The notes under the pieces are model-generated. The model worked only from the letters and a program-made list of their open reading frames with translations. It was not told the origin of the DNA and ran no database searches. From an uncultured Syntrophaceae bacterium (GTDB lineage: Bacteria > Desulfobacterota > Syntrophia > Syntrophales > UBA8958): a DNA stretch of 64,000 nucleotides. Below are positions 27,996 to 50,622 of this stretch, one piece after another. Each line of letters starts with the position of its first letter. Position 1 is the first letter of the stretch. Location: contig CAZYDG010000080.1 of assembly GCA_964645835.1 (NCBI GenBank), positions 1 to 64,000 of the forward strand, written 5' to 3'. Made by a program: the position numbers and the translations under genes.

Positions 27996-28013
27996 GGAGA
28001 ACCCTCTTTTCCC

Positions 28014-29390: not shown

Positions 29391-29393
29391 CGC

Positions 29394-30336: not shown

Positions 30337-31212
30337 TTAGCTAAGCCCCTCAAGGATTGCCTGTAGCTCCTTCTTTTCAAAATGATATGTTGTCCGGCAG
30401 AACTCGCACGTAATGTCAATATCCCCATGTTCCTCAATCAATGATGCGATTTCCGCCGGTCCCAGAGAGATGACGACCCGTTCGAGACGCCTCTGGTTGC
30501 AGGAACAGGCTAGATTCAGCGCCCCCATTTCCAGGGTGTGTAAGGGAGTATCGCCGAAAATAGCTTCCAGTATTGTTCCCGGCGTTCCCCCGTTGCGAAG
30601 GATCTGGGTGACGGGCGGCAATTTTTCCAGCCTTTCCATAAGGGTATCGATCATCGCGTCATCGGCGGGAGGAAATGCCTGGATCAGAAAACCGCCGGAT
30701 GCGGTAACGGTTTCGTCGGGCTCGACAAAAACGCCCAGTCCCACGGCCGATGGGATCTGTTCTGATTCGGCGAAATAGTAGGCCAGATCCTGTGCAATTT
30801 CTCCGCTGCGGATGGTGACGATTCCCTGATAGTTTTCCTGTCCTCCCAAATCCTTGATGACCGTGAGAAGACCGTTGTTCCCGACGACGCCCGAGACGTC
30901 GAGCTTTCCGGCCCGGGGCGGCAGGTCGGCATCCGGGTTGCCCACGAGCCCACGGACGTTGCCCAGGCGGTCGGCTTCGACGACAATGCGCCCAAGAGGG
31001 CCGTTCCCCTCGAACTTAAGAGCGAGGCTCTGGTCTTTCTTCAGGAGCATGGCCATGAGAGCTCCACCGGTCAGCGCCCGTCCCAGAGCCGCTGAGGCCG
31101 TGGGGGCTGTGCAATGAAGCTGAACTGCCTGATTCACGAGGTCGGTGGTCACGGCGGCCAAGCCCAGGATATTGCCGCTTTGCGTCATGGTTCGGATAAA
31201 GTAATTCTTCAT
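30337..31212 (-). CDS. hslO: Redox-regulated chaperone Hsp33
   Basis: 291 aa. C-terminal zinc-binding CxC...CxxC (LACSCNQRR ... CEFCRTTY). Confidence 0.88.
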   Translation of the reverse strand: MKNYFIRTMTQSGNILGLAAVTTDLVNQAVQLHCTAPTASAALGRALTGGALMAMLLKKDQSLALKFEGNGPLGRIVVEADRLGNVRGLVGNPDADLPPRAGKLDVSGVVGNNGLLTVIKDLGGQENYQGIVTIRSGEIAQDLAYYFAESEQIPSAVGLGVFVEPDETVTASGGFLIQAFPPADDAMIDTLMERLEKLPPVTQILRNGGTPGTILEAIFGDTPLHTLEMGALNLACSCNQRRLERVVISLGPAEIASLIEEHGDIDITCEFCRTTYHFEKKELQAILEGLS

Positions 31213-31381
31213 GGCCGGATCGTCTATCAGAAATGCCCATAACCTGCAAGCCCTATGGTAATCGTAATTTGTACTAAATTTCAGCCAAATCGAATGGAAG
31301 ATAGCGAGGCATTACCTCTCCGGGTCAGGGGATTTTTCTTCTATTTCACCTGCAGATGACGCCACTGAGGCGAGTTGGAAT

Positions 31382-31475
31382 ATCCCATTCACCTTCAACC
31401 AATACCCTGCTACCCCATTTCTTTGGGTCAGGGTGCATTGTAGTCTTTGCATTTTGGTGGTGGGTTGGAGGTGAT
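31382..31475 (+). repeat. Roughly 95-nt conserved non-coding element, copy B, about 240 nt upstream of hdrL
   Basis: See copy A at 6614-6706. Confidence 0.5.
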
Positions 31476-31716
31476 TGGTGAGTGAGGCGGCCACGGATGG
31501 CGGGGGATGGGAATGGGCTCCGGATGCCGACCGGCGGTCATAAATTGCAAAACTGGTTTTCCTTTTAGAGTACGGGACTTTCGGGATGTGAGAAACAATT
31601 TGGGCTTGACAGATTATACGAATCGTGGTAGCGCCCCCATTGTTTGTGCAACAAGGGTTAACCAGTTAAAAAATGAATTATTGATTGAATGCAAACATAT
31701 CTTGAGGTGGTAACAC

Positions 31717-34700
31717 GTGATAAAAGATAACGAAAAAATCGGTGCTGTCATGGTGGTCGGAGCCGGGATCGCAGGTATCCAGGCTTCTCTCGATTTGGCC
31801 AATTCCGGAATGAAGGTATATCTCGTGGAAAAGGGAATCAGCATCGGCGGCGTCATGGCCCAGCTGGACAAGACATTCCCGACGAACGACTGTTCAGCCT
31901 GCATCCTTTCCCCGAAGCTGGTTGAAGTAGGCCGTCATCCAAATGTGGAAATCCTGACCCAGCGGACTGTCGAGGCCGTAGAGGGAGAGGCGGGCCGTTT
32001 CAAGGTTCGTCTGACAAGGGCGCCGCGTTACGTTAACCTGAACAAATGTACGGGCTGCGGTGATTGTGCCAAGGTCTGCCCCGTTAACGTTCCTTCCGAT
32101 TTCAATGAACGCCTCTCCGAAAGACAGGCTACATACCGCCACTTTCCCCAGGCAATTCCCAGCGGTTTTGCCATAGATAAATTGGGAACATCTCCCTGTA
32201 AAGCAAACTGCCCAACTCATATCAGTGTCCAGGGTTATGTGGCCCTGATCGGCGCCGGGAAGTTCAAAGAAGCCCTTAAACTCATTAAGCAGGACAATCC
32301 CTTTCCCATCGTCTGCGGCCGCGTTTGTAACCATCCTTGCGAGACGGCATGTATGCGGGGTAAGGTGGATGATCCCATCGATATTATGCATCTGAAGCAG
32401 TTTGTCGCCGATCTGGATCTGAATGCCGAAACGCGCTATGTTCCCGAAAAGAAAGAAAGCAAGGGCAAGAAGGTCGCCATCGTCGGCGCCGGACCATCCA
32501 GTTTGACCTGCGCTTATTACCTGGCTATCGAGGGCTATGATGTGGACGTCTTTGAAGCCCTGCCCGTAGCGGGCGGCTGGCTTGCCGTCGGCATCCCCGA
32601 ATACCGGCTGCCCAAGAAAGTCCTGAAGGCCGAGATTCAGGTCATTGAAGATCTGGGCGTGAAGATCCATCTCAACACACGAATCGGTAAAGACATTTCT
32701 TTCGATAAACTCCAGAAAGATTACAACGCCGTCTTCATCGGCTGCGGAACCATGAAGAGCAGCAAGCTCAACATCCCCGGCGAGGACATGCAGGGCGTCA
32801 TCCACGGTGTTGACTATCTCATGCGCGTCAACCTGGGGGAAAAGGTCGCCCTGGGCGACAAGGTTGCTGTAGTCGGCGGCGGAAACGTGGCCATGGATGC
32901 AGTCCGGACCGCCGTCAGAATGGGGACCAAGGATGTCTTTATCCTCTACCGCCGGACCCGTGCGGAAATGCCTGCTGCGCCAGAGGAAATCGAAGAGGCC
33001 ATTGAAGAAGGCGTTGAGATGAAATTTCTCGTCGCCCCCAAGCGCGTCGTCGGCAAGGACGGCAAAGTGACAGGTATTGAATGTACAAGGATGGAGTTGG
33101 GTGAACCCGATAAAAGCGGCCGCCGCCGCCCCATCGAGATCAAGGGGTCCGAATTCATCGTTGAATGCGATGCCATCGTGCCCGCCATCGGCCAGGAGGC
33201 TGACCTTTCTTTCATTACGCAGGAAAGCGGCGTCTCCATCAATAAATGGAACAACATCGATTACGATGAACTGACGTATGCAACGACGACTCCCGGTATC
33301 TTCTCCGGCGGTGATGTCGTTACGGGTCCCCAGACCGTTGTCAAGGCTGTCTATGCCGGCAAGGAAGCGGCGAAATCCATCAACCGCTACTTGTCGGGTG
33401 AGGATATAAAGGCCGGCAGGGAGAAAGATTGGACCAAGGATCTGGCCGATAAGGCCGATGTCTCCAAAGTGCCCAAGAGCCCCCGCACGAAATATCCCCT
33501 CATGAAACCCGAAGACCGCCGGACAAACTTCAAGGAAGTCGGCCTCGGCTTCGATGAAGCGCAAGCCAAGGCGGAAGCCCTGCGCTGCCTTAACTGCGGG
33601 ATCTGTTCCGAGTGCTACCAGTGCGTTGACGCCTGTATCGCCGGGGCGATCAACCACGAAGATACATATGAGGAAGAGATGATCGAGGTCGGCGCCGTCA
33701 TCGCGTCGCCCGGATTTGAGATATTTGACGCCGGTATTCGTGGCGAATACGGATACGGTACGTTCAAGAACGTCGTAACAGCCATCCAGTTCGAGCGGAT
33801 CCTGTCGGCATCGGGCCCTTATTTCGGTCACGTGCAGCGGATTTCCGATGGCGTGGAACCGAAAAAAGTCGCCTTTATCCAGTGCGTAGGTTCCCGTGAT
33901 ACGTCCTGTGATAACAGCTGGTGTTCTTCCGTCTGCTGCATGTACGCGACGAAGGAAGCGATTATCGGCAAGGAACACGCAAAAAATCTAGAACCGACCA
34001 TCTTCTACATGGACATTCGCGCCCATGGAAAGGACTTCGACCGGTTTGTCAACCGGGCCAAGAACGAATACGGTATTCGTTATATCCGTTCCATGCCCTC
34101 CACCATTAAGGAACTTCAGCAGTCCAAGAACCTGCTGATCAAATATGTCCAGGAAGACGGCAGCCTTGTAGAAGAGGAATTCGACATGGTCGTTCTTTCT
34201 GTAGGCTTGACGCCGCCCAAAGAGGCCGCCCAGCTTGCCAAGGCAATGGGAGTCAATTTGGAAGAACACGGTTTCTGCGCTACGGCCTTGGACAATCCAG
34301 TCCAGAGCAGCCGGGAAGGGATCTTTGTCTGCGGCGCCTTCGGCGGTCCGAAAGACATACCCGAGACGGTCATGGAGGCCAGCAGCGCCGCCGCCTGTGC
34401 ATCGGGAATTCTTGCCAGCCAGCGGGGCACCCTGATCACGGCTGAAGAATTGCCAATGGAAAACGATCTCCGCGGCATCGGCCCACGGACGGGCGTCTTT
34501 GTCTGTCACTGCGGCATCAATATCGGCGGCGTCGTCAATGTCCCCGAGGTGGTGGAATACTGCAAGACCCTTCCCAATGTCGTCTATGCGACGGATAACC
34601 TCTTTACCTGTTCTCAGGATACGGCGGTCAAGATGGGCGAAGTCATCAAGGAACAAAACTTAAGCCGTGTCGTCGTCGCCTCCTGCTCACCCCGGACCCA

Positions 34701-36141
34701 TGAAGGGCTTTTCCAGGAAAACTGCGAGAAGGCCGGTCTTAATCGCTATCTGTTCGAGATGGCCAATATCCGCGACCAGGATTCCTGGGTCCACATGCAT
34801 GAACCGAAGGAAGCAACGGAAAAGGCCAAAGACCTTGTCCGCATGTCCATCGCCAAGGCCCAGTTCCTAAAACCTCTGAAACCGGGTCAGTTATCCGTCA
34901 ACCGCGCCACCATGATTATCGGCGGCGGTCTGGCCGGTATTACGGCGGCCCTTGCGCTGGCGGAACAGGGTTTTGAATCTTATATCATCGAGAAAAAGCC
35001 AGTTTTGGGCGGTAATTACAGGGATCTTTATTTCACACTGGAAGGCCTTGATACGAAGAAGCATTTGGCCGGCCTTCTGGATAAGGTGAAAGCCAGCAAA
35101 CTCATCCATGTCTATGCAGGTGCCGATATCGAAAAGATTGAAGGCTTCATCGGCAACTACAAGACGACGATCAAGAACAAGGACGGCCAGGCAACCTTTG
35201 AGCACGGTGTCGTCATCGTCGCCACCGGCGCTTATGAACTGGAAACCAGCGAATACCTCCACGGCCAGTCGGCAAACGTCGTCACCCAGCGGGACCTGGA
35301 AAAGATGCTCGCCGAAAAGGATGCCAAGGCGACCCAGGCCAAGAGCGTCGTCATGATTCAGTGTGTCGGGTCACGTATCCCCGAGCGGCCCTATTGCAGC
35401 CGTTATTGTTGCTCCGAGGCCATGAAGAATGCCCTCAAGATCAAAGAGATGGATCCGGAAAAGGATGTCACGATCATTTACCGCGATATCCGCACCTTCG
35501 GGTTGAAGGAAGATTATTACAAGAAAGCCCGCGAGCTTAATGTCAAGTTTGTTCGCTATGATGAAGACCGGAAACCGGAGGTCACCCAGAGCGGCAACCA
35601 GGTTTCCATCAGAGTCTTCGATCCGATCCTCAATGGCCCGGTCGATTTAGCGGCCGATCTGCTGGCCCTGTCCGTCGGTTCCGTTCCCAATCCTGAGAAT
35701 GCGGAGATTGGCCAGCGGCTGAAGGTCCCGACCAATCAGGACGGCTTCTTCCTTGAGGCCCATGTGAAGCTTCGTCCCGTCGATTTTGCAACGGACGGCG
35801 TCTTCATGTGCGGCATGGCCCATGCGCCGAAACTCAGCGAAGACGCCATTGTCCAGGCCAATGCGGCGGTGTCTCGCGCCTGCACTATCCTGACGAAAGA
35901 CTTCATCGAAGCGGAAGGAAAGACGGCTTTCGTCAATAAGGATCGCTGCTCCGCTTGTGGCCTCTGCGAGGAGAACTGCCCCTTCGGCGCCATTTCGGTG
36001 AATGTTGTCGAGGGATGCGCAGAAGTAAACGCCGTCCTGTGCAAAGGCTGCGGCGTCTGCACGGCCTCTTGCCGGATGAACGCCGTCGATCTAAACGGTT
36101 TCAGCAACGAAGAGGAATTGGAACAGATATATAATATGTAA
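31717..36141 (+). CDS. hdrA: Giant HdrA-like flavoprotein (HdrL-type: HdrA module, inserted GltD/NfnB-like module, second HdrA module)
   Basis: 1474 aa. Several FAD Rossmann motifs (VVGAGIAGI, VAIVGAGPSS, VAVVGGGNVAMD, IIGGGLAGITAAL). Two HdrA signatures (CVGSRD...CSSVCC and CVGSRIPERPYCSRYCC). Several CxxCxxCxxxCP ferredoxin motifs. GltD-like Fe-S region (CGRVCNHPCETAC). GTG start with RBS GAGGTGG. Confidence 0.85.
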   Translation: MIKDNEKIGAVMVVGAGIAGIQASLDLANSGMKVYLVEKGISIGGVMAQLDKTFPTNDCSACILSPKLVEVGRHPNVEILTQRTVEAVEGEAGRFKVRLTRAPRYVNLNKCTGCGDCAKVCPVNVPSDFNERLSERQATYRHFPQAIPSGFAIDKLGTSPCKANCPTHISVQGYVALIGAGKFKEALKLIKQDNPFPIVCGRVCNHPCETACMRGKVDDPIDIMHLKQFVADLDLNAETRYVPEKKESKGKKVAIVGAGPSSLTCAYYLAIEGYDVDVFEALPVAGGWLAVGIPEYRLPKKVLKAEIQVIEDLGVKIHLNTRIGKDISFDKLQKDYNAVFIGCGTMKSSKLNIPGEDMQGVIHGVDYLMRVNLGEKVALGDKVAVVGGGNVAMDAVRTAVRMGTKDVFILYRRTRAEMPAAPEEIEEAIEEGVEMKFLVAPKRVVGKDGKVTGIECTRMELGEPDKSGRRRPIEIKGSEFIVECDAIVPAIGQEADLSFITQESGVSINKWNNIDYDELTYATTTPGIFSGGDVVTGPQTVVKAVYAGKEAAKSINRYLSGEDIKAGREKDWTKDLADKADVSKVPKSPRTKYPLMKPEDRRTNFKEVGLGFDEAQAKAEALRCLNCGICSECYQCVDACIAGAINHEDTYEEEMIEVGAVIASPGFEIFDAGIRGEYGYGTFKNVVTAIQFERILSASGPYFGHVQRISDGVEPKKVAFIQCVGSRDTSCDNSWCSSVCCMYATKEAIIGKEHAKNLEPTIFYMDIRAHGKDFDRFVNRAKNEYGIRYIRSMPSTIKELQQSKNLLIKYVQEDGSLVEEEFDMVVLSVGLTPPKEAAQLAKAMGVNLEEHGFCATALDNPVQSSREGIFVCGAFGGPKDIPETVMEASSAAACASGILASQRGTLITAEELPMENDLRGIGPRTGVFVCHCGINIGGVVNVPEVVEYCKTLPNVVYATDNLFTCSQDTAVKMGEVIKEQNLSRVVVASCSPRTHEGLFQENCEKAGLNRYLFEMANIRDQDSWVHMHEPKEATEKAKDLVRMSIAKAQFLKPLKPGQLSVNRATMIIGGGLAGITAALALAEQGFESYIIEKKPVLGGNYRDLYFTLEGLDTKKHLAGLLDKVKASKLIHVYAGADIEKIEGFIGNYKTTIKNKDGQATFEHGVVIVATGAYELETSEYLHGQSANVVTQRDLEKMLAEKDAKATQAKSVVMIQCVGSRIPERPYCSRYCCSEAMKNALKIKEMDPEKDVTIIYRDIRTFGLKEDYYKKARELNVKFVRYDEDRKPEVTQSGNQVSIRVFDPILNGPVDLAADLLALSVGSVPNPENAEIGQRLKVPTNQDGFFLEAHVKLRPVDFATDGVFMCGMAHAPKLSEDAIVQANAAVSRACTILTKDFIEAEGKTAFVNKDRCSACGLCEENCPFGAISVNVVEGCAEVNAVLCKGCGVCTASCRMNAVDLNGFSNEEELEQIYNM

Positions 36142-36189
36142 ACTAAGGTAAATGGCTGCTAAAGCCAATTGCCAATGGAGGGAGTATAT

Positions 36190-36627
36190 ATGGCCGAAGA
36201 TTCAACAAACAAGGAATGGGTACCGAAAATCGTTGCCATTGTCTGCAATTGGTGTACTTACGCGGGCGCCGATCTGGCTGGTATCAGCAGAATTCAGTAT
36301 CCGCCGAATGTACGCATCATGCGCGTTCCCTGCACGGGAAGGATCAACCCTTTTTACATCGTGAAAGCCTTGCAGACGGGAGCCGACGGCGTTCTCGTAT
36401 CGGGTTGACACCCCGGTGAATGCCACTATATTTCGGGAAATCTGGTGGCGCGCCGCAAGTTTGCGACGTTAAAAAGTTTCCTGGACTACATCGGTGTGGA
36501 AGGTGACAGGACCATTTTTACATGGGTGTCAGCTTCTGAAGGAGAGCGTTTCGCCAATGTCATCAAAGGCGTGACGGCGAAGGTAAAAGCCCTCGGTCCG
36601 CCCGCCCGGCTGGTTAAGTCTTTGTAA
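36190..36627 (+). CDS. mvhD: MvhD (methyl-viologen-reducing hydrogenase delta subunit) homolog with in-frame UGA, predicted selenocysteine
   Basis: ORFs 36169-36408 and 36445-36627 share one frame, separated only by TGA 36406-36408. The translation VSG-U-HPGECHY aligns the UGA with the conserved Cys of the MvhD GCHxGDCHY motif. N-terminal CNWC and C-terminal [10 protein letters not shown] motifs are conserved. RBS GGAGGGA. Confidence 0.8.
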
Positions 36628-36687
36628 TAAAAACAGGGTTTATTAGAAAAACCGGTTGATCACACTAAAAACGAGGATTCATAAAAA

Positions 36688-37695
36688 GTGGAAAACATAG
36701 ATAAAAAGTTACGGGAAGAGGCAAAGAGGCTCCTCGAAGAGAAGAAGGTCGAAGTCATTGTAGGTTATGAAGAGGGAACCCTTCCCTTGACAGCCACGCC
36801 CTGCTTTATCACCCAGCCCGAGGAGGCCGAAAAACTGGTCTGGAACGCCTATTGCACCCAGAACCTGGCGAAGTTCGTCCATGACCTCATTTCGCAGCAT
36901 AAAAACGCCCAGAAACGCGTGAAGCCGGAAGATAAGAAAAAGAAGATCGTCGGTGTCATCGCACGGGGTTGCACCACCCGTTCCATTATTCTGCATATCC
37001 AGGAACGGCAATACAGCCGTGAGGAAGTCGTCGTCATCGGTGTTCCCTGCACAGGCTATGTGGATCGAAAGACCTTAAGTGTTGCCTTGAACGGCGAAGA
37101 AGTCATCGGCGGAAGCTTGAACGGCGATCAGTTTACAATCCAGACACCGGGCGGCGAAAAGAAACTGGCTTTGGCCGATGTTCTGGCCGAAAATTGCGTG
37201 ACCTGCCGGTTCAACAATCCCCTGATCAGCGACGTTATGATCGGTTCGCCTGCGCCGGCAATGAAGCCCGAGCAGGAATACGACGATGTGAAGGCTTTTG
37301 AGAGCATGTCGGCCGATGAGCGATGGGCCTATTTTCAAAAGGAGATGGGCAAGTGCATCCGTTGCTACGCCTGCCGTCAGGCCTGTCCCTCCTGCTATTG
37401 CCCCACCTGTTTCATGGAGCAGAGTCAGCCCCAGTGGGTCGGTATCGGTGAGGGTGCGTCGGATACCCAGGTATTTCAGATCATGCGGATATTCCACATG
37501 GCCGGTCGTTGTGTGGACTGCGGGTCCTGCATCACCGTTTGTCCCATGGGTGTCGATTTGAGAAAATTCCTTAAGAAGCTCGACAAAGACGGCTTTGAGA
37601 TGTTTGGCGGCCGCTGCGGGTCTTCCCTGGAAGATCGACCGATCCTTTCCACATTCAAAGAACACGAGGCGGAAGATTTCATCTATAATCCTTAA
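36688..37695 (+). CDS. Fe-S cluster oxidoreductase subunit (two 4Fe-4S ferredoxin-type motifs; FrhB/FlxC-like), exact family unclear
   Basis: CIRCYACRQACPSCYCPTC and CVDCGSCITVCPMG cluster-binding motifs. GTG start with RBS GAGGA. Confidence 0.55.
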   Translation: MENIDKKLREEAKRLLEEKKVEVIVGYEEGTLPLTATPCFITQPEEAEKLVWNAYCTQNLAKFVHDLISQHKNAQKRVKPEDKKKKIVGVIARGCTTRSIILHIQERQYSREEVVVIGVPCTGYVDRKTLSVALNGEEVIGGSLNGDQFTIQTPGGEKKLALADVLAENCVTCRFNNPLISDVMIGSPAPAMKPEQEYDDVKAFESMSADERWAYFQKEMGKCIRCYACRQACPSCYCPTCFMEQSQPQWVGIGEGASDTQVFQIMRIFHMAGRCVDCGSCITVCPMGVDLRKFLKKLDKDGFEMFGGRCGSSLEDRPILSTFKEHEAEDFIYNP

Positions 37696-37782
37696 AGCCG
37701 CATGCCTGGAAAAAAGATCCTGGTCAAGTCCTACGGGTGCTGGCCATTGACGGAAGATGATCAAGTAAGAAATGGAGCAAGC

Positions 37783-38304
37783 ATGAAAACCTTTCTCGAT
37801 GAAGTAAATGAAAAGATAAACGGAGTGCCGATTCAGCGCTGCTACCACTGTCGCAAATGCACGGCCGGGTGCCCGTTGGCCTTCACCATGGAGTACAATC
37901 CAAACCGGGTAATCAAGATGATACAGATGGGTCAGAAGAGAGAGGTCCTCTCCAGTGCTACGATCTGGCTCTGTGCATCTTGCGAGACCTGTATTACCCG
38001 TTGCCCGAATAATGTGGATATTGCACGGATGATGGATGTCCTTAGGGAAATGGCCATAGCGGAAGGCGTGGCCGCGAAAGAGGCGAATGTCCTGAAGTTC
38101 CATGAGGCGTTCCTCTGGAGTATCAAATTTGGCGGACGGATCAATGAGCCGCTTTTGATGGTCAATTACAAGCTTAAATCCGGTGACCTGTTCGCCGATA
38201 TGGGCATGGGCATCGATATGTTCATGAAGGGCAAGTTGTCCCTGGTGTCACCCCGGACGAAGGATCTCAAATCGGTTAAGCAGATATTTGAAAAAACGAA
38301 GTAA
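37783..38304 (+). CDS. hdrC: Heterodisulfide reductase subunit C-like (two 4Fe-4S)
   Basis: CYHCRKCTAGCP and CASCETCITRCP motifs. Size and helical C-terminal half typical of HdrC. Confidence 0.8.
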   Translation: MKTFLDEVNEKINGVPIQRCYHCRKCTAGCPLAFTMEYNPNRVIKMIQMGQKREVLSSATIWLCASCETCITRCPNNVDIARMMDVLREMAIAEGVAAKEANVLKFHEAFLWSIKFGGRINEPLLMVNYKLKSGDLFADMGMGIDMFMKGKLSLVSPRTKDLKSVKQIFEKTK

Positions 38305-38328
38305 GCATAACGCACAAGGAGGCAAGCG

Positions 38329-39180
38329 TTGAAAGTTTCATATTATCCGGGATGTTCCCTGCATGGGACGGCGAAGGAATATGACCAGTCCGTCAAAGCG
38401 GTAAGCAAGGCCCTGGACATCGAACTCAAAGAAGTCCAGGATTGGTCTTGCTGCGGCGCCACATCGGCCCATGCCACGAATTTTAAGCTGTCCGTAGCGC
38501 TTCCGGCACGAAATCTCGTGGCGATCGAAAAGAGCGCGGACAAAGAGGTAATGGTTCCCTGCGCCGCCTGTTTTAACCGCTTTAAAACGGCTCAGCATAA
38601 TATGGCCCATGACGCCTCACTGAAGAAAGAAATCGAAGGCATTCTCGGCAGTTCCTATGCTGGAACGGCCGTGGTGAAGAATCCCATCGGAATCATCCAT
38701 GATGACGTGGGTCTTGATGTCCTGGCGAAGAAAGTTGTAAAGAAGCTTGCCGGTCTTAAGCCTGTCTCCTACTATGGATGCCTCCTTGTGAGACCGCCTG
38801 AGGCCTGCGAGTTCGAGAATGTCGAAAACCCCTATATGCTCGATGATATCCTCAGAACCCTGGGGGCCGATGTCAAGCCCTGGTCGTACAAAACGGATTG
38901 CTGTGGTGGAAGCTTAACCATCAGCCGGACGGATATCGTTCACAAACTCGTGGATAAACTGATGACCATGGCCCGTGAAGCGGGGGCAAACTGTGTCGTA
39001 ACGGCCTGCCCCGTCTGCCTGACGAACCTGGACGCCCGGGTGAGCGAAAATCTGCAGCTTCCCGTCTTTTATTTCACGGAACTTGTGGCTTTGGCCCTTG
39101 GACTTCCGGGAGCATCCGACTGGTTCAAATTGCATATGGTAGACCCGACACCGCTCATGGGCGGCTTGGGCTTGATCTAA
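38329..39180 (+). CDS. hdrB: Heterodisulfide reductase subunit B-like (two CCG domains)
   Basis: Two Cys-rich CCG motifs (CxxxCCG...C; WSCCGATSAH and DCCGGSL). TTG start with RBS AAGGAGG. Confidence 0.8.
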   Translation: MKVSYYPGCSLHGTAKEYDQSVKAVSKALDIELKEVQDWSCCGATSAHATNFKLSVALPARNLVAIEKSADKEVMVPCAACFNRFKTAQHNMAHDASLKKEIEGILGSSYAGTAVVKNPIGIIHDDVGLDVLAKKVVKKLAGLKPVSYYGCLLVRPPEACEFENVENPYMLDDILRTLGADVKPWSYKTDCCGGSLTISRTDIVHKLVDKLMTMAREAGANCVVTACPVCLTNLDARVSENLQLPVFYFTELVALALGLPGASDWFKLHMVDPTPLMGGLGLI

Positions 39181-39212
39181 AATATCCTAAATTTAGACGA
39201 TTGAAGGACGAT

Positions 39213-40235
39213 ATGGAAAAACGGTTGATAAAGAAAGACGCTCTGGCAGGGATCGTAAAAAAGATAGGCGCCGATCTGACCATCTATGCACCGGTGAAGG
39301 TCGAGGACAACGTCTTGTTCAAAGTGCTGGAAAAGGGGGAAGAGCCCCTCACCGTATATGCGAACAGCAAGAATGCGCCGAAGAACTTTTTCTTTCCCCG
39401 TACGGAAGTGATGATGCGCTATACGCGGACCACCAAGGGTATGGAACTCAAGAACGAAGAGCTTGCGTCTACGGAATCCGTCCTATTCGGCGTCCGCCCT
39501 TGTGATACGCGCAGTTTTGCTCTTTTGGACATGCTTTTCGATCAGGAAAAATATAAGGATCCCTACTATATCGAAAAGAGGAACAAGACAACGATCGTCT
39601 CCCTGGCCTGCTCACATCCTCCCTATTCAACGTGCTTCTGCACCTCAGTGGGCGGTCGTCCCGTGGATGACAAGGGCAGCGATGTCCTGCTGACGGACCT
39701 GGGGGATCAATATCTGGCGGAATTCGTGACGCCCAAGGGAGAAAAACTGACCAAATATTTCGGTGACGCAAAGGCCGATGACGGGGCGGAAAAGAAGAAG
39801 GAAGCTATTGCCGCCCAGGCGGAAGGTGAGATAAAATCACATATCCCCGCTAAGGAGATCAAACCGATCCTTGACGTGAACTTCGAGCACCCCTTCTGGA
39901 ACACGATTCATCAGAAGTGTCTGGCCTGCGGAACCTGCACGTACCTGTGCCCCACATGCCACTGTTTTGATATCAGCGACGAGTCAAAATATGATGACGG
40001 CAGGCGCCTGAGAAATTGGGACTCCTGCATGTTTGCCCTCTTTACGAAAGAGACCTCGGGCCACAATCCCCGCACGTCTCAAAAGGAGAGATGGCGTCAG
40101 CGGACCATGCATAAATTCAAGTATTACGTGGATAACTTCGATGCCATCGCCTGTGTGGGTTGCGGTCGGTGTGTCATGTCCTGTCCGGTTAATATTGACA
40201 TCCGGAAAATCGTCGAAGACATTTCGAAATTATAG
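39213..40235 (+). CDS. AsrA/HydB-like Fe-S subunit (anaerobic sulfite reductase subunit A / sulfhydrogenase beta family)
   Basis: About 340 aa with C-terminal CLACGTCTYLCPTCHC and CVGCGRCVMSCP ferredoxin motifs. Pairs with the downstream FAD/2Fe-2S subunit, as in AsrAB/HydBG. Confidence 0.7.
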   Translation: MEKRLIKKDALAGIVKKIGADLTIYAPVKVEDNVLFKVLEKGEEPLTVYANSKNAPKNFFFPRTEVMMRYTRTTKGMELKNEELASTESVLFGVRPCDTRSFALLDMLFDQEKYKDPYYIEKRNKTTIVSLACSHPPYSTCFCTSVGGRPVDDKGSDVLLTDLGDQYLAEFVTPKGEKLTKYFGDAKADDGAEKKKEAIAAQAEGEIKSHIPAKEIKPILDVNFEHPFWNTIHQKCLACGTCTYLCPTCHCFDISDESKYDDGRRLRNWDSCMFALFTKETSGHNPRTSQKERWRQRTMHKFKYYVDNFDAIACVGCGRCVMSCPVNIDIRKIVEDISKL

Positions 40236-40252
40236 CAGCGCGGGAGATTGTC

Positions 40253-41092
40253 ATGCAGAATCCATATGTACCTTATCCGGTTGAACTGATCAAAATCGTG
40301 ACTGAAGTGGACACGAAGGACATCAAGACCTTTCGCTTTGCCTTCGTGAATAAGGAAGACGAGGCAAAATACAGTTACATTCCCGGTCAGTTCGGTGAAC
40401 TGTCCGTCTTCGGGAAAGGAGAGTCGCCCATCGGGATCGCCTCTTCCCCCACGAACCCCGGTTATGTCGAATTCACCGTTCAGAAGGCCGGTGTCGTAAC
40501 GTCGGCCCTCCATGAGATGGAAGAGGGTACCCGGATGGGCCTTCGCGGCCCCTTGGGCAATTCCTGGCCCATTGAATTTCTGGAAGGGAAAAACATCGTC
40601 ATCGTCGGCGGCGGTTTCGCCTTCACGACCCTGCGGTCCCTCATTCAATACATGATTCACGACGAAAACAGAAAGCGCTTCGGCAAGATTACAGTCATCT
40701 ACGGAGCCAGAAACCCGGGCTTGCTGCTTTACAAGGACGAACTGGAAGTTTGGGCGAAGCGGGGTGACATTGACCTGAATGTCACCGTGGACAAGGGCGA
40801 TGCCGGCTGGAAGGGGCGCGAAGGGTTTGTGCCCACGGTCTGCAAGGAAGTGGCGCCGAGCCCCGAGAATGCCGTGACCCTGATCTGTGGACCCCCGATC
40901 ATGATCCGCTTTACGCTGCCTGTTTTCTTTGAATTGGGCTTCTCTAACGAGAATATCATCACATCTCTGGAAATGCGCATGAAATGCGGTATCGGCAAGT
41001 GCGGCCGTTGCAATGTGGGCAGCAAGTATGTCTGCAAGGACGGTCCGGTCTTTTCCCTGGCCGAGCTTGACAAGCTGACGAAAGAGTATTAA
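40253..41092 (+). CDS. AsrB/HydG/PyrK-like FAD/NAD(P)-binding subunit with C-terminal 2Fe-2S
   Basis: Ferredoxin-NADP-reductase-like fold motifs (RFAFV, GGGFAFTTL). C-terminal CGIGKCGRCNVG cluster. Confidence 0.75.
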   Translation: MQNPYVPYPVELIKIVTEVDTKDIKTFRFAFVNKEDEAKYSYIPGQFGELSVFGKGESPIGIASSPTNPGYVEFTVQKAGVVTSALHEMEEGTRMGLRGPLGNSWPIEFLEGKNIVIVGGGFAFTTLRSLIQYMIHDENRKRFGKITVIYGARNPGLLLYKDELEVWAKRGDIDLNVTVDKGDAGWKGREGFVPTVCKEVAPSPENAVTLICGPPIMIRFTLPVFFELGFSNENIITSLEMRMKCGIGKCGRCNVGSKYVCKDGPVFSLAELDKLTKEY

Positions 41093-41187
41093 TTTCTTTT
41101 CAGTTTTTTCCAGGGACAGAAAAGTGCTGATCAGAGGGGATGCCTGGGTATCCCCTCTTTTTTTATAGCAGAGGAGACTGATAAAAA

Positions 41188-42024
41188 TTGAATACCATAA
41201 CAAAGAAAATCCAGTTGTCCGAGAATGTATGCCAGATGGACATTGAGGCCCCGGAGATTGCGCGGAAGCGCAGGGCGGGGCAATTCGTCATCCTGAAGGT
41301 GAATGAAACGGGGGAGCGGATCCCCTTGACGATTGTCGACTCAGATGCCGCCAAGGGAACGATAACGATCATCTTTCAGATTGTCGGAAAAACGACGGAT
41401 CTCATGTCGCATCTGAACGTTGGCGATAGCTTTCAGGATATCCAGGGACCGTTGGGAAACCCTACAGAGGTCGAGAACTACGGCCATGTAGTGTGCATCG
41501 GCGGCGGTGTCGGCGTCGGGGTCATCTATCCTATCACGAAGGCTTTAAAAGAAGCGGGAAATAAGGTGACGTCCATCATCGGTGCCCGTACGAAAGACCT
41601 GGTGATCCTGGAAGATGAGATGCGCAAGGTTAGTGATACTCTCGTCGTCACAACGGATGACGGGAGTTACGGTGTCCACGGTTTTGTCAGTGCCGTCCTT
41701 CAGAAGATGATCGCCGAAGGAGAAAAAATAGACCGGGTCTTTGCTATCGGTCCTGTTCCCATGATGAGGGTTGTCGCCGATGTCACCCGTTCCCACGAGA
41801 TCAAGACAATCGTCAGCCTGAATGCGATTATGGTCGACGCTACGGGCATGTGCGGCGCCTGTCGGGTGGCCGTTGCGGGGAAGACGAAGTTCACATGCGT
41901 GGACGGTCCGGAATTCGACGGCCACGAAGTGGATTTCGACATATTGACAAAACGGCTCCGCATGTATTGCGAAGAGGAAAAAAAGTCCTATGAAGGGCAC
42001 AGGTGTGGATGGAATGGAAACTGA
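41188..42024 (+). CDS. nfnA: NfnA/SudB-like subunit (FAD, 2Fe-2S) of NADH-dependent ferredoxin:NADP+ oxidoreductase
   Basis: PyrK-like fold with CGACRVAV...C cluster. Immediately followed by, and overlapping, the GltD-like partner. Confidence 0.75.
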   Translation: MNTITKKIQLSENVCQMDIEAPEIARKRRAGQFVILKVNETGERIPLTIVDSDAAKGTITIIFQIVGKTTDLMSHLNVGDSFQDIQGPLGNPTEVENYGHVVCIGGGVGVGVIYPITKALKEAGNKVTSIIGARTKDLVILEDEMRKVSDTLVVTTDDGSYGVHGFVSAVLQKMIAEGEKIDRVFAIGPVPMMRVVADVTRSHEIKTIVSLNAIMVDATGMCGACRVAVAGKTKFTCVDGPEFDGHEVDFDILTKRLRMYCEEEKKSYEGHRCGWNGN

Positions 42025-43435
42025 ACCGAAAAAAGAGAAGAAAGAAAAGATTCCCCGGCAGGCTATGCCGGAGCAGGAGCCGGGGGAACGGCGACGAAAC
42101 TTTGATGAAGTGCCCCTGGGGTATAGTTCTGAAACAGCCATTTTAGAGGCTTCGCGTTGCATCCAGTGTAAAAAGCCGGGCTGCATTACCGGTTGCCCTG
42201 TTGATGTAAAGATTCCCGAATTTATCAAACAGATCGTCGAAGGGGATTTTCTGGCCGCTGCAAAGACGCTCAAGGAAACGAACAGCCTTCCGGCTGTTTG
42301 CGGCCGGGTCTGTCCCCAGGAGGATCAATGCGAAAAACTCTGTATCCTCGGCAAGAAAGGTGATCCCGTGGCCATTGGTCGCCTGGAGCGTTTTGCCGCA
42401 GATTTCGAACGGGCGTCGGGAACGGTTGAAATTCCTGCCGTTATTGAGGCAAAGGGGAAAAAGGTCGCCATCGTCGGCGCCGGTCCATCGGGGCTCACAA
42501 TCGCCGGCGATCTGGTCAAACTCGGTTATGACGTCACGATCTTCGAGGCCCTTCACAAGGCCGGAGGGGTACTGATATATGGGATTCCTGAATTCCGCCT
42601 GCCCAAGGCCATCGTCGATGCCGAGGTTGCGTACCTTGAAAGGCTGGGCGTCAAGATTGTCCTCAACGCCGTTGTCGGCAGGCTAAAGACCGTGGATGAG
42701 CTTTTTGAAGAAGGATTCGACGCCGTCTACATTGCCGTCGGCGCCGGTGCCCCCGTTTTTATGAATATCCCAGGAGAGAATCTGCTGGGCATTTACTCGG
42801 CCAACGAATACCTGACGCGGTCGAATCTTATGAAGGCATACCGGTTCCCCGAATACGATACACCTATCGTCCGCGGGAAGAACGTCGCTGTTGTTGGCGG
42901 CGGCAATGTGGCAATGGATTCCGTCCGGACGGCCTTGCGTCTGGGGGCGGAAAATGCCTATATCGTTTATCGCCGTAGCGAAGTGGAGTTGCCTGCCCGG
43001 AAGGAGGAGGTCCATCATGCGCAGGAGGAAGGTGTCCAGTTTCTCCTGCTGACGAATCCTGTTGGGTACATCGGTGACGAACACGGCTGGGTGACGGGCA
43101 TGAGATGCATCCGTATGGAACTTGGTGAACCGGATGCTTCAGGAAGGCGCAGCCCCGTTCCGATTCCGGATTCGGAGTTCATCATTGATGTGGATACAGT
43201 CGTCGTATCCGTAGGGACCATGGCCAATCCCGTCGTCCCGTCGACGACACCCGGCCTGGAGACAAATCGCTGGGGCTATATCGTGACAAAAGGTGAATCG
43301 GGCGAGACGACCCGTCAAGGCGTCTATGCCGGAGGTGACATTGTGACAGGGTCCGCCACGGTCATCCTGGCCATGGGCGCAGGCCGTCAAGCCGCTCGCG
43401 CCATTCACGAGTATCTTTCCGGGAAAGGGTGTTAG
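42014..43435 (+). CDS. nfnB: NfnB/SudA-like subunit (GltD-type: two 4Fe-4S, FAD and NAD(P)H sites)
   Basis: CIQCKKPGCITGCP and CGRVCPQEDQCEKLC Fe-S motifs. Two Rossmann motifs (VAIVGAGPSGL, VAVVGGGNVAMD). ATG overlaps the nfnA stop. Confidence 0.8.
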   Translation: METEPKKEKKEKIPRQAMPEQEPGERRRNFDEVPLGYSSETAILEASRCIQCKKPGCITGCPVDVKIPEFIKQIVEGDFLAAAKTLKETNSLPAVCGRVCPQEDQCEKLCILGKKGDPVAIGRLERFAADFERASGTVEIPAVIEAKGKKVAIVGAGPSGLTIAGDLVKLGYDVTIFEALHKAGGVLIYGIPEFRLPKAIVDAEVAYLERLGVKIVLNAVVGRLKTVDELFEEGFDAVYIAVGAGAPVFMNIPGENLLGIYSANEYLTRSNLMKAYRFPEYDTPIVRGKNVAVVGGGNVAMDSVRTALRLGAENAYIVYRRSEVELPARKEEVHHAQEEGVQFLLLTNPVGYIGDEHGWVTGMRCIRMELGEPDASGRRSPVPIPDSEFIIDVDTVVVSVGTMANPVVPSTTPGLETNRWGYIVTKGESGETTRQGVYAGGDIVTGSATVILAMGAGRQAARAIHEYLSGKGC

Positions 43436-43473
43436 GCTAAAGGCTAAAGGTCTTCTTCATTTTACGATGTTTT

Positions 43474-43532
43474 GTAGTCCAGCCCTTTAGGGCTGTAAAA
43501 AAGAAAGCAGGGCTAAAGCCCTGCGCTACATT
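43474..43532. repeat. REP-like palindromic repeat, second copy
   Basis: See 30166-30220. Confidence 0.4.
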
Positions 43533-43552
43533 AGGGTTAGGAATTGCAAACA

Positions 43553-43594
43553 AAAAAAAGGCCGGCAGAGCGCTAATCTGCCGGCCTTTTTTTT
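43553..43594. terminator. Bidirectional rho-independent terminator between the convergent nfnB and atpB genes
   Basis: A-run, gccggcagagcgctaatctgccggc hairpin, T-run. Confidence 0.7.
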
Positions 43595-43606
43595 GTTATG
43601 AGAATC

Positions 43607-44266
43607 TTAGTGGTGTTCTTCCATGGCGCCTGCAATGTACATCATGGACAAGAGCATGAAGACGAGGGTCTGAATGAAGCAAATCAAGAGCTTCAGGACC
43701 AGAATGGGCAGCGGTACCAGTAGGGGAACAAGAAGAAGGATAACGGCGAGGACGATATGGCCGCCTTCAATGTTTCCAAACAAACGGAACGTCAGGGAGA
43801 CGGGGCGTGCGATATGGCCGACAAGTTCGATGGGGATCATAAGGGGAGCAAGCCACGGATTTGGTCCGACAAACTGTTTCAGGTATTTCACGCCCTGGAC
43901 CTTGACTCCGACGATATGGGTCAGCAAGAAAACGATCAGGGCCATGCAGAGGTTGGTATTAAGATTTCCCGTCGGGGATTCGAAACCCGGGATGAGTCCC
44001 AGGACGTTGGAAACAAGGATGAACAGGCCGATGGTGGCAATGAGGGGAAAGAATTTCTTCCCATGTTCGCCCATTGTGTCGAGCAACAGCGTATAGAAGG
44101 CGTCGATGATCACTTCCATGATGTTCTGGATGGAGCCGGGGTTGATGTTTAAGCGGCGCGTGGCCAGAAACGACACCAGAATCAATAAGGCCATGACCAG
44201 CCATGTATAGGTCACATGGGTGGGTATGGAAGGGAATGCAAGGTTAAAAAACGACATGGTATGCAT
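43607..44266 (-). CDS. atpB: F0F1 ATP synthase subunit a
   Basis: 219 aa, 5-6 TM helices. Conserved stator arginine motif (LTFRLFGN). Confidence 0.9.
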
Positions 44267-44269
44267 CTT

Positions 44270-44665
44270 CTATTGAACCTCCTCAAGGCAGTTTTTTTTT
44301 GATAGTGTCATGACAGCGGTCAAAACAATGTTGATCAAGACAATGGAGAGACCAACGAGCAGACCGATGACATCCACGATATGGCTGGAGATAATGAAAT
44401 ATAAAACAACGGCGGAAACACCGAAACGAATGTAGTATTTAAGCATGACACGGGTTTTGGCCCGGTCATCCAAGGTTTGAAATACTTTTTTCAAGTCGTG
44501 ATTGAGCCAGTGATAGTTAATAATGCTGATGAATCCGCCCAGGAGGACACCAAGGGTAAACAGGGATGAGAAAAGGATCTGGCTGACTAGTACGAATGCG
44601 CCCAGCATGATCCAATTGAAGACTTCAAGTTTTTGCTGGAACGGATCTTTTTCTGTGAATTTCAC
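44270..44665 (-). CDS. atpI: ATP synthase protein I (AtpI)-like small membrane protein
   Basis: About 120-130 aa, 4 TM helices, located between atpZ-like and atpB. Start uncertain (44665 or 44608). Confidence 0.6.
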   Translation of the reverse strand: MKFTEKDPFQQKLEVFNWIMLGAFVLVSQILFSSLFTLGVLLGGFISIINYHWLNHDLKKVFQTLDDRAKTRVMLKYYIRFGVSAVVLYFIISSHIVDVIGLLVGLSIVLINIVLTAVMTLSKKNCLEEVQ

Positions 44666-44909
44666 TTTTTATGGACCGAATAACTATCTTTTCGTCTCTG
44701 AAATAATTTCTTATCAATTGGTACAAACTGCGGAACCCGGCAACAATGCCCATCAGCAACAGCAGAAAGGTAAAGAAGGGTGACGTTCCCAGCTTGTTAT
44801 CCAGAAAATTGCCCAAAAACAACCCGCCAAACACTGCGAGAACCATGCCGATACCGATACTGCTTGCATAGGCCATCTGTGTGTAGGCTCTATTCTGTTC
44901 CTTCTTCAT
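44625..44909 (-). CDS. AtpZ/AtpR-like putative F0F1-ATPase accessory subunit
   Basis: About 95 aa, two TM helices (AYASSIGIGMVLAVFGGLFLGNFLD). RBS GAGGTG. First gene of the atp F0 fragment. Confidence 0.55.
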   Translation of the reverse strand: MKKEQNRAYTQMAYASSIGIGMVLAVFGGLFLGNFLDNKLGTSPFFTFLLLLMGIVAGFRSLYQLIRNYFRDEKIVIRSIKSEIHRKRSVPAKT

Positions 44910-45364
44910 GTTGCGGCACCTCATATCATGCAAGGGTAATGAAGTCAACAAAAATAAGACCGGCAAGCATTTGATATACCCTGTTCCAATTCTAAATCAA
45001 AGCTCTGTTTCGTTGTCTTCGTCATCACCTCCTCGAACTATTTCTGTAAACGCCTTAAGTCACTTTTTCCTTGCCGCCTGCATATCGTCTTTGAATTAGA
45101 ACCGGAATTACTCAGCTTTTGTCTGCCTTGTAACTGGGTATTTTTATCATTCCTCCTTGAAAAGGCATGTGGAGAGGTAACGTTCCCCCGTATCCAAGAT
45201 ATAGCCCCCATGGACACGGCGCATTCAGGGATTGATCAGCTGCCACAGGTACTTTGATGCCCCAAGCCCTCTTTTTATTTCGATAATCACACAGTACCCC
45301 TCAAGTATTTTTTAAAATTGCCGACATACAGGTAGCACGATAGAAAGCAGAAATATGCAGGAGT

Positions 45365-50252: not shown

Positions 50253-50254
50253 TG

Positions 50255-50587: not shown

Positions 50588-50622
50588 ACAGCCGTTTCCT
50601 TTCCATGTCTTGTCCCGTTATG

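Follow-up and report, generated by a model that had tools for sequence, protein, structure and literature searches.

A 64,000-nucleotide stretch of contig CAZYDG010000080.1 (assembly GCA_964645835.1) from an uncultured Syntrophaceae bacterium, referred to in its full length as the window, carries seven consecutive genes on the + strand (g1 to g7, 31717-41092) that we read as one operon for a soluble multi-flavin, NAD(P)H-linked complex resembling heterodisulfide reductase (Hdr), of the Flx-Hdr/HdrL kind, with the following nfnAB pair as a separate unit. From domain content, gene order and comparison with related loci, we give this reading a probability of roughly 0.62. Such a complex would most likely carry out flavin-based bifurcation or confurcation of electrons between NAD(P)H, ferredoxin, and a disulfide. 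Nine + strand open reading frames (ORFs) were confirmed at 31717-43435, and their domain content was determined by Pfam and NCBIfam scans; the gaps between g1 and g7 are 6-60 nt long. The first-pass annotation of this DNA had listed a selenocysteine (Sec)-containing MvhD, HdrC, HdrB, a HydBG/AsrAB-like pair, and a complete NfnAB, and all of these parts are present as judged by Pfam and NCBIfam matches and by alignment of the in-frame UGA. The window also matches contig JARLUC010000001.1 of assembly GCA_030920355.1 identically, and its closest relatives are metagenome-assembled genomes (MAGs) of Syntrophaceae and Syntrophales.

The first gene, g1 (31717-36141, +), encodes a 1474-aa HdrL-type tandem HdrA fusion with two HdrA-type units and a GltD/NfnB-like module. 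The FAD-binding GxGxxG and the four-cysteine [4Fe-4S] motif of HdrA (CxGSR...C-x3-CC) occur twice, at residues 12-40/722-741 and 1066-1095/1215-1232, the cysteine signatures reading QCVGSRDTSCDNSWCSSVCC at 722-741 and QCVGSRIPERPYCSRYCC at 1215-1232, and both units align to methanogen HdrA (5odc_A and 8rvv_A); the E-values of the HdrA matches to the solved methanogen complexes are about 1e-186 to 1e-190. Unit 1 (residues 1-155 and 630 to about 905) consists of a thioredoxin-reductase-like FAD domain with an inserted ferredoxin domain: residues 12-155 match 5odc_A 147-290 (start of the FAD domain and first half of the inserted ferredoxin domain), and residues 630-847 match 5odc_A 293-511 (second half of the inserted ferredoxin domain and FAD domain). 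Unit 2 (residues 923-1474) consists of the HdrA N-terminal domain, a FAD domain, and the C-terminal ferredoxin domain, residues 923-1099 matching 5odc_A 4-180 (N-terminal domain and start of the second FAD domain) and residues 1339-1472 matching 5odc_A 512-647 (end of the FAD domain and C-terminal ferredoxin domain). Neither unit holds the full four-domain set of HdrA. Unit 1 lacks the N-terminal and the C-terminal ferredoxin domains, and unit 2 lacks the inserted ferredoxin domain, such that in the alignment to 5odc_A and 8rvv_A the losses are complementary and the set is complete only across both units. Methanogen HdrA works as a dimer in which electron paths cross between protomers, and its inserted ferredoxin domain is the ferredoxin-facing arm. 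If this picture holds here, g1 would be a fused, asymmetric, domain-pruned HdrA pseudo-dimer. The HdrL-like architecture given to the giant protein in the first-pass annotation, an HdrA with an inserted GltD/NfnB module followed by a second HdrA, is thus borne out by the domain mapping.

The NfnB/GltD-like NAD(P)H-FAD-2x[4Fe-4S] module occupies residues 156-629 of g1 (32182-33603, +), and it is placed between the positions of 5odc_A residues 290 and 293, where it separates the pair of [4Fe-4S] motifs in unit 1's inserted ferredoxin domain. This location suggests that the low-potential arm of HdrA may be wired to a second pyridine-nucleotide site, instead of or besides free ferredoxin. The insert is 45% identical over 415 aa to the neighbouring NfnB (g9; E 1e-116), and its closest relatives of solved structure are NfnB-like domains (9bov_A, 8oh5_C, 9n5u_A, 4ylf_B, and 5jca_L). 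In the homologue alignment its FAD and NAD(P)H glycine motifs are invariant, as is YRR at residues 411-413, which is common to NfnB and which we take to be the NADPH 2'-phosphate site. Residues 589-627 (window 33481-33597) resemble residues 22-60 at the N-terminus of NfnB (46% identity, E 4e-8), so that the first-cluster cysteine motif of NfnB appears to be split over the two ends of the insert, into C161/C165 (window 32197-32211) and C624/C627, all of them invariant. This split may stem from circular permutation or, equally well, be what remains of a duplication that the PRK12771/Stn-type family shares.

The possibility, raised in the first-pass annotation, that the giant ORF is an assembly fusion of separate hdrA and gltD-like genes can be ruled out. 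Full-length homologues of 1463-1504 aa with 74-95% identity are found in more than 120 database clusters. One genome per species was scanned, which gave at least 599 pattern matches; 578 of these encode a relative of g1, and since full-length relatives are thus encoded at at least 578 species-level genome loci across many phyla, an artificial fusion is excluded. The best 80 of these 578 relatives cover residues from about 1 to 1471. Identity to g1 is 70-95% in Syntrophales (Syntrophus and Smithella) and about 50-56% in Desulfobacterales, Syntrophobacterales, Syntrophorhabdus, Acidobacteriota, Chloroflexota, Clostridia, Aminicenantes, and one Hodarchaeota MAG.

The second gene, g2 (36190-36627, +; 145 codons), follows g1 after 48 nt and encodes an MvhD/FlxD-like [2Fe-2S] subunit (PF02662, E 3e-51) with a Sec residue. 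The in-frame TGA is codon 73 (36406-36408), in the context VSG-U-HPGECH, and the same alignment column holds TGA in 17 further Syntrophales orthologues and TGC or TGT in the rest. By the usual comparative criterion, this classic Sec/Cys pattern marks the TGA as a genuine Sec codon. A hairpin of -18.2 kcal/mol, a candidate bacterial SECIS element by its position, begins 8 nt past the UGA; its z-score is -1.3, and 26 of 200 shuffled sequences fold as well, so that it is no more stable than is usual at this base composition. A Sec/Cys switch at the same codon was also seen in distant lineages (loci L044, L045, L053, L061, L064, L070-L074, and L077), and its independent recurrence suggests that HdrL-associated MvhD is a recurrent selenoprotein.

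The putative disulfide-reductase half of the predicted complex is encoded by g4 and g5, which together carry the features of an HdrBC module. The product of g4 is an HdrC-like 2x[4Fe-4S] subunit matching TIGR03290 (E 3e-20) and NF041779 (E 9e-20). Its gene ends at 38304 (+) and has an ambiguous start: ATG at 37702 gives 200 aa, and ATG at 37783 gives 173 aa, as in the NCBI gene call. The first 27 residues of the longer form are kept only in the closest relatives, and more distant orthologues match from about residue 28; the true start may be the ATG at 37783. The HdrB-like product of g5 (38329-39180, +; 283 aa) has two CCG domains (PF02754, in two stretches), and matches methanogen HdrB with E-values of 1e-29 to 1e-34. 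It aligns over its full length to methanogen HdrB 8rvv_B (E 1.9e-34) with all ten cluster-ligating cysteines aligned, and a catalytic disulfide-reductase site in g5 is plausible on this alignment. Together with the FAD and four-cysteine motifs kept in both HdrA units, the ten cluster cysteines of HdrB indicate that the cofactor sites are retained.

The third gene, g3 (36688-37695, +; 335 aa), had been called simply an Fe-S protein. By profile comparison, it is an Fe-S subunit of the FdhB/FrhB family: a profile built from 14 orthologues has a match (E 2.3e-40) to 7bkb_E, the FdhB of the Methanospirillum Fdh-Hdr-Fmd complex, over FdhB residues 32-207 and 271-393, and further matches to 9t1s_M and 8rvu_E. 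Its conserved cysteines are C56, C95, C121, C170, C173, C223-C241, and C275-C285. Since FdhB is a subunit of solved methanogen complexes with HdrA and HdrB (7bkb and 8rvu), these offer a docking analogy for g3. In these complexes FdhB presumably contacts MvhD, and g3 is probably an adaptor between the diaphorase arm and MvhD.

The last two genes of the operon encode the putative diaphorase. The 344-aa g6 protein (39201-40235, +) is a Fer4_22 protein (PF17179, E 1.5e-34) of HydB/AsrA-like type, which also matches NF040833 (E 3e-50) and, among solved structures, best matches the beta subunit of Pyrococcus sulfhydrogenase I (9nez_B, E 6.8e-43). The 279-aa g7 protein (40253-41092, +) is HydG/AsrB/PyrK-like and combines FAD, NAD(P)H, and [2Fe-2S] domains (PF00970, PF00175, and PF10418), its best structural match being the gamma subunit of the same enzyme (9nez_C, E 3.5e-56). 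As far as the names of their homologues are concerned, g6 and g7 could be parts of a sulfite reductase or of a hydrogenase. However, no AsrC-type sirohaem protein (NIR_SIR) was found among the scanned ORFs of the operon and the window, and the AsrA and AsrB models TIGR02910 and TIGR02911 score below their cutoffs (152 vs 323 and 192 vs 289). Likewise, the beta- and gamma-like genes stand alone, with no NiFe subunits of a sulfhydrogenase (HydABDG/SHI), and the equivalog scores are 171 vs 750 and 185 vs 650. A link to class II benzoyl-CoA reductase (BamBCDEFGHI) was also rejected, as no ORF for a BamB/AOR-family protein or a NuoEFG-like BamGHI was found among the likely-gene ORFs of at least 150 aa in the window. 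More generally, no hydrogenase, sirohaem protein, or BamB was found among the window ORFs scanned.

The identity of the pair becomes clearer from the Smithella loci L082 (6120-12939), L083, and L030 (19663-24420), in which a second cluster lies directly after the seven-gene cluster, in the slot held here by nfnAB. This second cluster encodes an HdrD-like protein (398 aa), HdrA (649 aa), MvhD (145 aa), an FdhB-like protein (288 aa), a Fer4_22 protein (345 aa), and a PyrK-like flavoprotein (286 aa), in what is reportedly, after Ramos et al. 2015, the canonical hdr-flxDCBA order. Our definitions of the Flx subunits are in part those that the same study reportedly gave for D. vulgaris Flx-Hdr, and for the rest they follow PMC4759654 and PMC5606693. 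Four of our proteins are paralogous to the proteins at the Flx positions of this cluster: g2 is 55% identical to its MvhD at the FlxD position (E 2e-58), g3 is 30% identical over the full length to the FlxC-position protein (E 7e-64), publicly named "formate dehydrogenase (coenzyme F420) beta subunit", g6 is 37% identical to the FlxB-position protein (E 2e-76), and g7 is 76% identical to the FlxA-position protein (E 1e-169), as against only 28% to the neighbouring NfnA. The FAD, NAD(P)H, and [2Fe-2S] sites of g7 are those of an FlxA, and the FlxB-, FlxC-, and FlxD-like g6, g3, and g2 adjoin hdrA and hdrBC. On this paralogy, the "AsrAB-like pair" belongs to the NAD(P)H-diaphorase arm of a Flx-Hdr-type complex, and g2, g3, g6, and g7 form, as far as homology and position tell, a paralogous Flx set around an HdrL-type HdrA rather than including an independent AsrAB/HydBG system. 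Smithella thus has two paralogous Hdr/Flx systems in tandem, 14 genes in all, and this seven plus seven matches the gene count of the 14-gene "Hdr/Flox" cluster of Ca. Smithella cisternae (437_38:51), which, given the lack of Rnf in that organism, was proposed to supply reduced ferredoxin in conjunction with an unknown thiol/disulfide pair (PMC5606693).

The conservation of gene order is consistent with a single unit. In a tblastn comparison of the nine window proteins against 81 loci, the order HdrL-MvhD-FdhB-like-HdrC-HdrB-HydB-like-HydG-like is strictly kept, with small gaps, in all Syntrophales loci that are long enough, and genes 1-7 accordingly emerge from the synteny as one conserved unit in this order of bacteria. 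The mvhD gene follows the HdrL gene in nearly all of the 80 related loci, and in distant loci HdrL-MvhD is the constant core. HdrL-MvhD-FdhB-like-HydB-HydG is contiguous in L033 (Clostridia), L035, L038, L064, and L050 (Anaerolineae), with HdrCB following in L050, and HdrCB lies upstream of HdrL in at least seven distant loci. In 27 distant HdrL loci of about 50% identity (among L040-L081, e.g. L072, 14956-16559), the partner is MetV-MetF (methylene-tetrahydrofolate reductase), usually right after MvhD and often with HdrCB upstream, which makes these loci a form of the core linked to the Wood-Ljungdahl pathway. A constant HdrL-MvhD with varying neighbours argues for a modular core that docks different partner modules, and the published HdrL contexts DsrABC, FdhAB, and POR (PMC2702500, PMC12142623, and PMC5947623) fit such a core. 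In addition, at the Desulfobacterota loci L040, L042, L046, L071, and L076, an HdrL-type gene shares a stretch of 10 kb with one or two ordinary HdrA-MvhD pairs arranged in tandem with it, which suggests that the HdrA-MvhD core has been duplicated repeatedly. The first-pass annotation had seen in this locus three normally separate systems combined in one supercomplex; from the Clostridia, Anaerolineae, and Desulfobacterales loci, the HydB/HydG-like pair looks instead like the Flx arm that travels with HdrL.

In the simplest scenario, NAD(P)H would be oxidised at the HydG/FlxA-like flavoprotein g7, and electrons would pass through the HydB/FlxB-like g6 and the FdhB/FlxC-like g3 to the [2Fe-2S] selenoprotein MvhD (g2), and from there to the HdrA flavins of g1. 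Bifurcation would then send one electron uphill toward ferredoxin-level potential and the other downhill via HdrC (g4) to the two non-cubane clusters of HdrB (g5), where a disulfide would be reduced. The complex could also run in reverse, by confurcation. As the low-potential arm holds the NfnB-like NAD(P)H-FAD module, ferredoxin might be bypassed or supplemented.

Several points weigh against this reading of the seven genes. The Flx reference used as canonical is the Smithella cluster, recognised by its architecture and gene order, and not the studied D. vulgaris DVU2399-2405. For all HdrL-type complexes, complex formation and the electron path would follow only from homology and synteny. The ORFs scanned in the 64-kb window include no candidate for a thiol/disulfide carrier such as DsrC. 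Nor does the simple Flx-Hdr scheme account for there being a potential NAD(P)H site both in g7 and in the NfnB-like insert, and it is this mismatch with the Flx-Hdr analogy that leads to a transhydrogenase-like rival, discussed below. Finally, the T-run that follows g7 lies only 29 nt from the nfnA start with no clear promoter in between, and some nfnAB expression by read-through or attenuation is therefore possible.

The 95-nt gap between g7 and g8 contains an intrinsic-terminator-like hairpin (41133-41165, +; hairpin 41133-41158 followed by T7) with an 11-bp stem, 6 G-C pairs, and a 4-nt loop, the top-ranked terminator-like site in 31000-45500. In 12 other Syntrophales loci, among them Smithella loci that lack nfnAB, the HydG-like gene is likewise followed by a comparable GC-rich hairpin with a T-run. 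Downstream of it, g8 (41188-42024, +; 278 aa) is an NfnA (NF004862, 414.7 bits, cutoff 220) and g9 (41990-43435, +; 481 aa) an NfnB (TIGR01316, 588.8 bits, cutoff 471.75; PF14691, E 9.5e-44); the two overlap by 35 nt and, as an adjacent pair above the curated cutoffs, qualify as NfnAB. The pair follows g7 in 12 Syntrophus-like loci and is not at this position in 7 of the 19 Syntrophales loci with enough downstream sequence (at least 4.8 kb in these seven), its slot being held by the second Hdr/Flx cluster in Smithella and, in three further Syntrophales loci, by genes of no assigned identity. Thus, nfnAB is a separable neighbour, and from its model matches and its distribution, nfnAB (41188-43435) is predicted to be an ordinary NADH-dependent ferredoxin:NADP+ oxidoreductase that varies with lineage. 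A TTGACA-17-TAATTT promoter-like element, the sole such element noticed, lies at 41067-41095 in the 3' end of g7, upstream of the hairpin and nfnA, and might serve nfnAB as a promoter, followed by a leader or attenuator. A bidirectional terminator-like hairpin, read from the sequence as A8-GGCCGGCAG...CTGCCGGCC-T8, lies at 43553-43592 between nfnB and the minus-strand atpB/atpI. Riboswitches, leaders, and SECIS elements were sought with Rfam in 31000-45500, and only sub-threshold matches resulted, on the terminator hairpins, including terminator-containing families at 43553-43592. A sigma-70 consensus scan gave 11 sites vs 11.4 in shuffled sequence, which is no excess, and inspection by eye upstream of g1 gave no convincing promoter and no sigma-54 element.

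The most inclusive alternative, and the one favoured by the first-pass annotation, is that all nine products, NfnAB included, form one multi-flavin supercomplex or at least a co-regulated set linking NADH, NADPH, ferredoxin, and a disulfide. All nine genes are adjacent and on the same strand, and the Syntrophus-like loci keep nfnAB after g7; the distance from the terminator to nfnA is very short, which would allow read-through co-transcription, and the g1 insert is 45% identical to NfnB. We nevertheless consider this alternative improbable, as the strong hairpin after g7 is conserved, the nfnAB slot is taken by another cluster in Smithella and by other genes elsewhere in Syntrophales, NfnAB is a self-sufficient heterodimer in 4ylf and 5jca, and the conserved PyrK-family partner of HdrL is g7, which has little identity to NfnA. 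At the other extreme, g6 and g7 might work on their own as an NAD(P)H:acceptor oxidoreductase of the sulfide-dehydrogenase or AsrAB type, with no more than the operon in common with the other genes. Their greatest similarity is indeed to sulfhydrogenase beta/gamma and to AsrA/AsrB, which are two-subunit diaphorase modules in their home enzymes, but neither NiFe hydrogenase subunits nor an AsrC partner were found with them among the ORFs scanned, and the FdhB-like/HydB-like/HydG-like trio is contiguous with MvhD, with no HdrCB in between, in the Smithella hdr-flx cluster and in distant HdrL loci. An independent g6-g7 enzyme is thus highly improbable.

Two further alternatives accept the seven-gene complex and differ in what it would do. 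It could be mainly transhydrogenase-like, with NADH bound at the FlxA-like subunit and NADPH at the insert, such that exergonic disulfide reduction, or ferredoxin oxidation, would drive NADP+ reduction. The FAD of HdrA and that of the NfnB-like insert, both of them competent for bifurcation, would then stand head-to-head via low-potential Fe-S arms, with HdrBC as the disulfide-reducing end. The position of the NfnB-like module exactly inside the inserted ferredoxin domain of HdrA speaks for this, as do the invariant YRR shared with NfnB, the origin of the nearest solved relatives of the insert (8oh5_C, 9bov_A, 9n5u_A, 4ylf_B, and 5jca_L) in bifurcating enzymes, and the conservation of a second, independent NAD(P)H flavoprotein, g7, in the operon. 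However, in enzymes such as glutamate synthase and dihydropyrimidine dehydrogenase, GltD-type modules do no more than feed in electrons from NADPH, so a second nucleotide site need not mean transhydrogenation; nucleotide specificity is not reliably readable from sequence; and the MetVF-partnered relatives do without a FlxA-like subunit, so that the insert alone can be the nucleotide site. We regard this version, with its head-to-head flavins, as unlikely. If true, the operon would encode a ferredoxin-independent, disulfide-coupled transhydrogenase or "double bifurcation" machine with the pseudo-dimer as a minimal asymmetric HdrA dimer, and we know of no characterised enzyme that matches such a head-to-head arrangement. 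Alternatively, HdrBC may act here only as an electron relay to a quinone-linked or CoA-ester-reducing partner, as in the electron-transfer flavoprotein:menaquinone oxidoreductase (EMO) and in BamD of class II benzoyl-CoA reductase. Non-cubane-cluster domains are purely electron-transferring in EMO of Syntrophus and occur also in BamD (bioRxiv 10.64898/2026.08.18.745454), no gene for a thiol carrier was found among the window ORFs scanned, and sulfate reduction is not known for Syntrophales. EMO has substitutions, though, whereas g5 keeps all ten cysteines of both non-cubane clusters in comparison with methanogen HdrB, and no BamB/AOR-type or membrane-anchor gene was found among the scanned ORFs of the operon and the window; a pure relay role is accordingly rather improbable. 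The bifurcating or confurcating, NAD(P)H-linked Flx-Hdr/HdrL-type complex of g1 to g7 remains our preferred reading.

Upstream of the operon lie a sigma-54-dependent two-component pair (PAS histidine kinase and NtrC-type response regulator, 25830-29390) and a small GTPase gene (together 25830-29969), with a divergent Hsp33 gene between them and the operon. Downstream of nfnB are the minus-strand atpB/atpI, and genes for a PLD-like protein, an MBL-fold protein, a radical SAM protein (DUF3641), and a TusA-domain protein. The last of these, a 206-aa protein with an N-terminal TusA sulfur-carrier domain, adjoins the radical SAM/DUF3641 protein (49290-51243, -) about 6 kb past nfnB; this sulfur-relay protein could be relevant to the thiol substrate of the Hdr module, or its presence could be a coincidence. 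Further downstream, a minus-strand cluster at 51.9-59.7 kb encodes acetyl-CoA hydrolase/CoA-transferase-family, GPR1/FUN34/YaaH-family, and 4-hydroxybutyryl-CoA dehydratase-like (HpaB-family) proteins, an acyl-CoA dehydrogenase, a thiolase, and an SDR protein, and beside it a divergent gene encodes a sigma-54 activator with a PAS domain (59751-61775). The first-pass annotation had connected the electron-transfer genes to this cluster as part of butyrate/crotonate metabolism. We find the connection weak: the cluster is 8.5-16 kb away on the opposite strand, with its own divergent sigma-54 activator and unrelated genes in between, so that proximity is all that suggests it.

HdrL-type proteins are very widespread in anaerobes, with 578 species-level loci in groups that include Desulfobacterota, Acidobacteriota, Chloroflexota, Clostridia, and even a Hodarchaeota MAG, and in genome papers they are regularly cast as hubs of confurcation or bifurcation. 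To our knowledge, no HdrL-type protein has been purified as a defined complex or structurally solved. Rnf-less syntrophs such as Smithella are proposed to obtain the reduced ferredoxin for H2 and formate production from an Hdr/Flox complex, and the mechanism of these complexes thus bears on the energetics of methanogenic fatty-acid and alkane degradation. The pruned tandem HdrA, the NfnB-like module in the ferredoxin-facing domain, the FdhB-like adaptor, and the full paralogous Flx arm provide testable hypotheses for cryo-electron microscopy and enzymology. There is also a message for annotation, namely that "AsrAB/HydBG-like" genes beside Hdr genes are to be read as Flx-type diaphorase subunits and not as sulfite reductase or hydrogenase parts.

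The seven-gene operon is of a kind already recognised, HdrL having been named in 2009 and Hdr/Flox clusters being known from syntrophs, and biochemically uncharacterised. In its inventory it resembles D. vulgaris FlxABCD-HdrABC, which comprises a PyrK-like FAD/NAD(P)H/[2Fe-2S] protein, two Fe-S proteins, an MvhD-like protein, HdrA, HdrB, and HdrC. For that system, which is also known from other anaerobes (Ramos et al. 2015, cited in PMC6687939, PMC4759654, and PMC5606693), the proposed logic is likewise that NADH reduces ferredoxin and a disulfide by flavin-based bifurcation. In our operon, however, HdrA is replaced by a 1474-aa tandem HdrA whose NfnB-like NAD(P)H module is a second nucleotide site, hdrCB lies between the flxC-like and flxB-like genes, and MvhD is a selenoprotein; the likeness itself is judged via the Smithella paralogues. 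A similar idea has been put forward for Dred_1325-30 of Desulfotomaculum reducens, where NADH oxidation would be taken over by a large HdrA that contains NADH domains (PMC4759654). HdrL of Desulfobacterium autotrophicum (Strittmatter 2009) was described as a fusion of HdrA and glutamate synthase with mvhD always next to it (PMC2702500), and both features are found in g1, a large HdrA with a GltD-like NAD(P)H module and mvhD directly downstream. The Syntrophobacter fumaroxidans cluster Sfum_0819-0824 (HdrL-MvhD-FeS-HdrABC), which is abundant in the proteome (PMC5947623), also resembles our operon in having hdrABC and an Fe-S protein similar to the beta subunits of formate dehydrogenase and hydrogenase, and a Syntrophobacter MAG (L036) encodes a full-length g1 homologue of 52% identity followed by MvhD. 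Unlike these HdrL systems, our operon has the second HdrA fused in and includes the HydB/HydG (FlxB/FlxA)-like pair, and D. autotrophicum and S. fumaroxidans, for their part, reduce sulfate and have DsrC.

The Moorella-type HdrCBA-MvhD-MetVF clusters share the same tandem HdrL protein (about 50% identity, residues 1-1471) followed by MvhD, often with HdrCB upstream. Their partner, however, is MetV-MetF and not the FdhB-like/HydB-like/HydG-like trio, and they have no FlxA-like second nucleotide site; an NADH:benzyl viologen activity has been mentioned for Moorella HdrA (PMC5296606). Compared with the methanogen complexes MvhAGD-HdrABC and FdhAB-MvhD-HdrABC(-Fmd) (5odc, 7bkb, and 8rvu), HdrA, HdrB, HdrC, and MvhD are homologous and g3 is homologous to FdhB, but the input module would be an NAD(P)H diaphorase instead of a hydrogenase or formate dehydrogenase, HdrA is a fused and pruned pseudo-dimer, as we picture it, with an NfnB-like insertion, and the host is a bacterium without coenzyme M and coenzyme B. 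As compared to solved NfnAB (4ylf and 5jca), g8 and g9 look like an ordinary stand-alone pair, whereas the insert of g1 has no dedicated NfnA partner, is embedded in HdrA, and finds its best curated match not in the NfnB model but in NF009410 (582.7 bits, cutoff 516; residues 158-657, inside HdrA).

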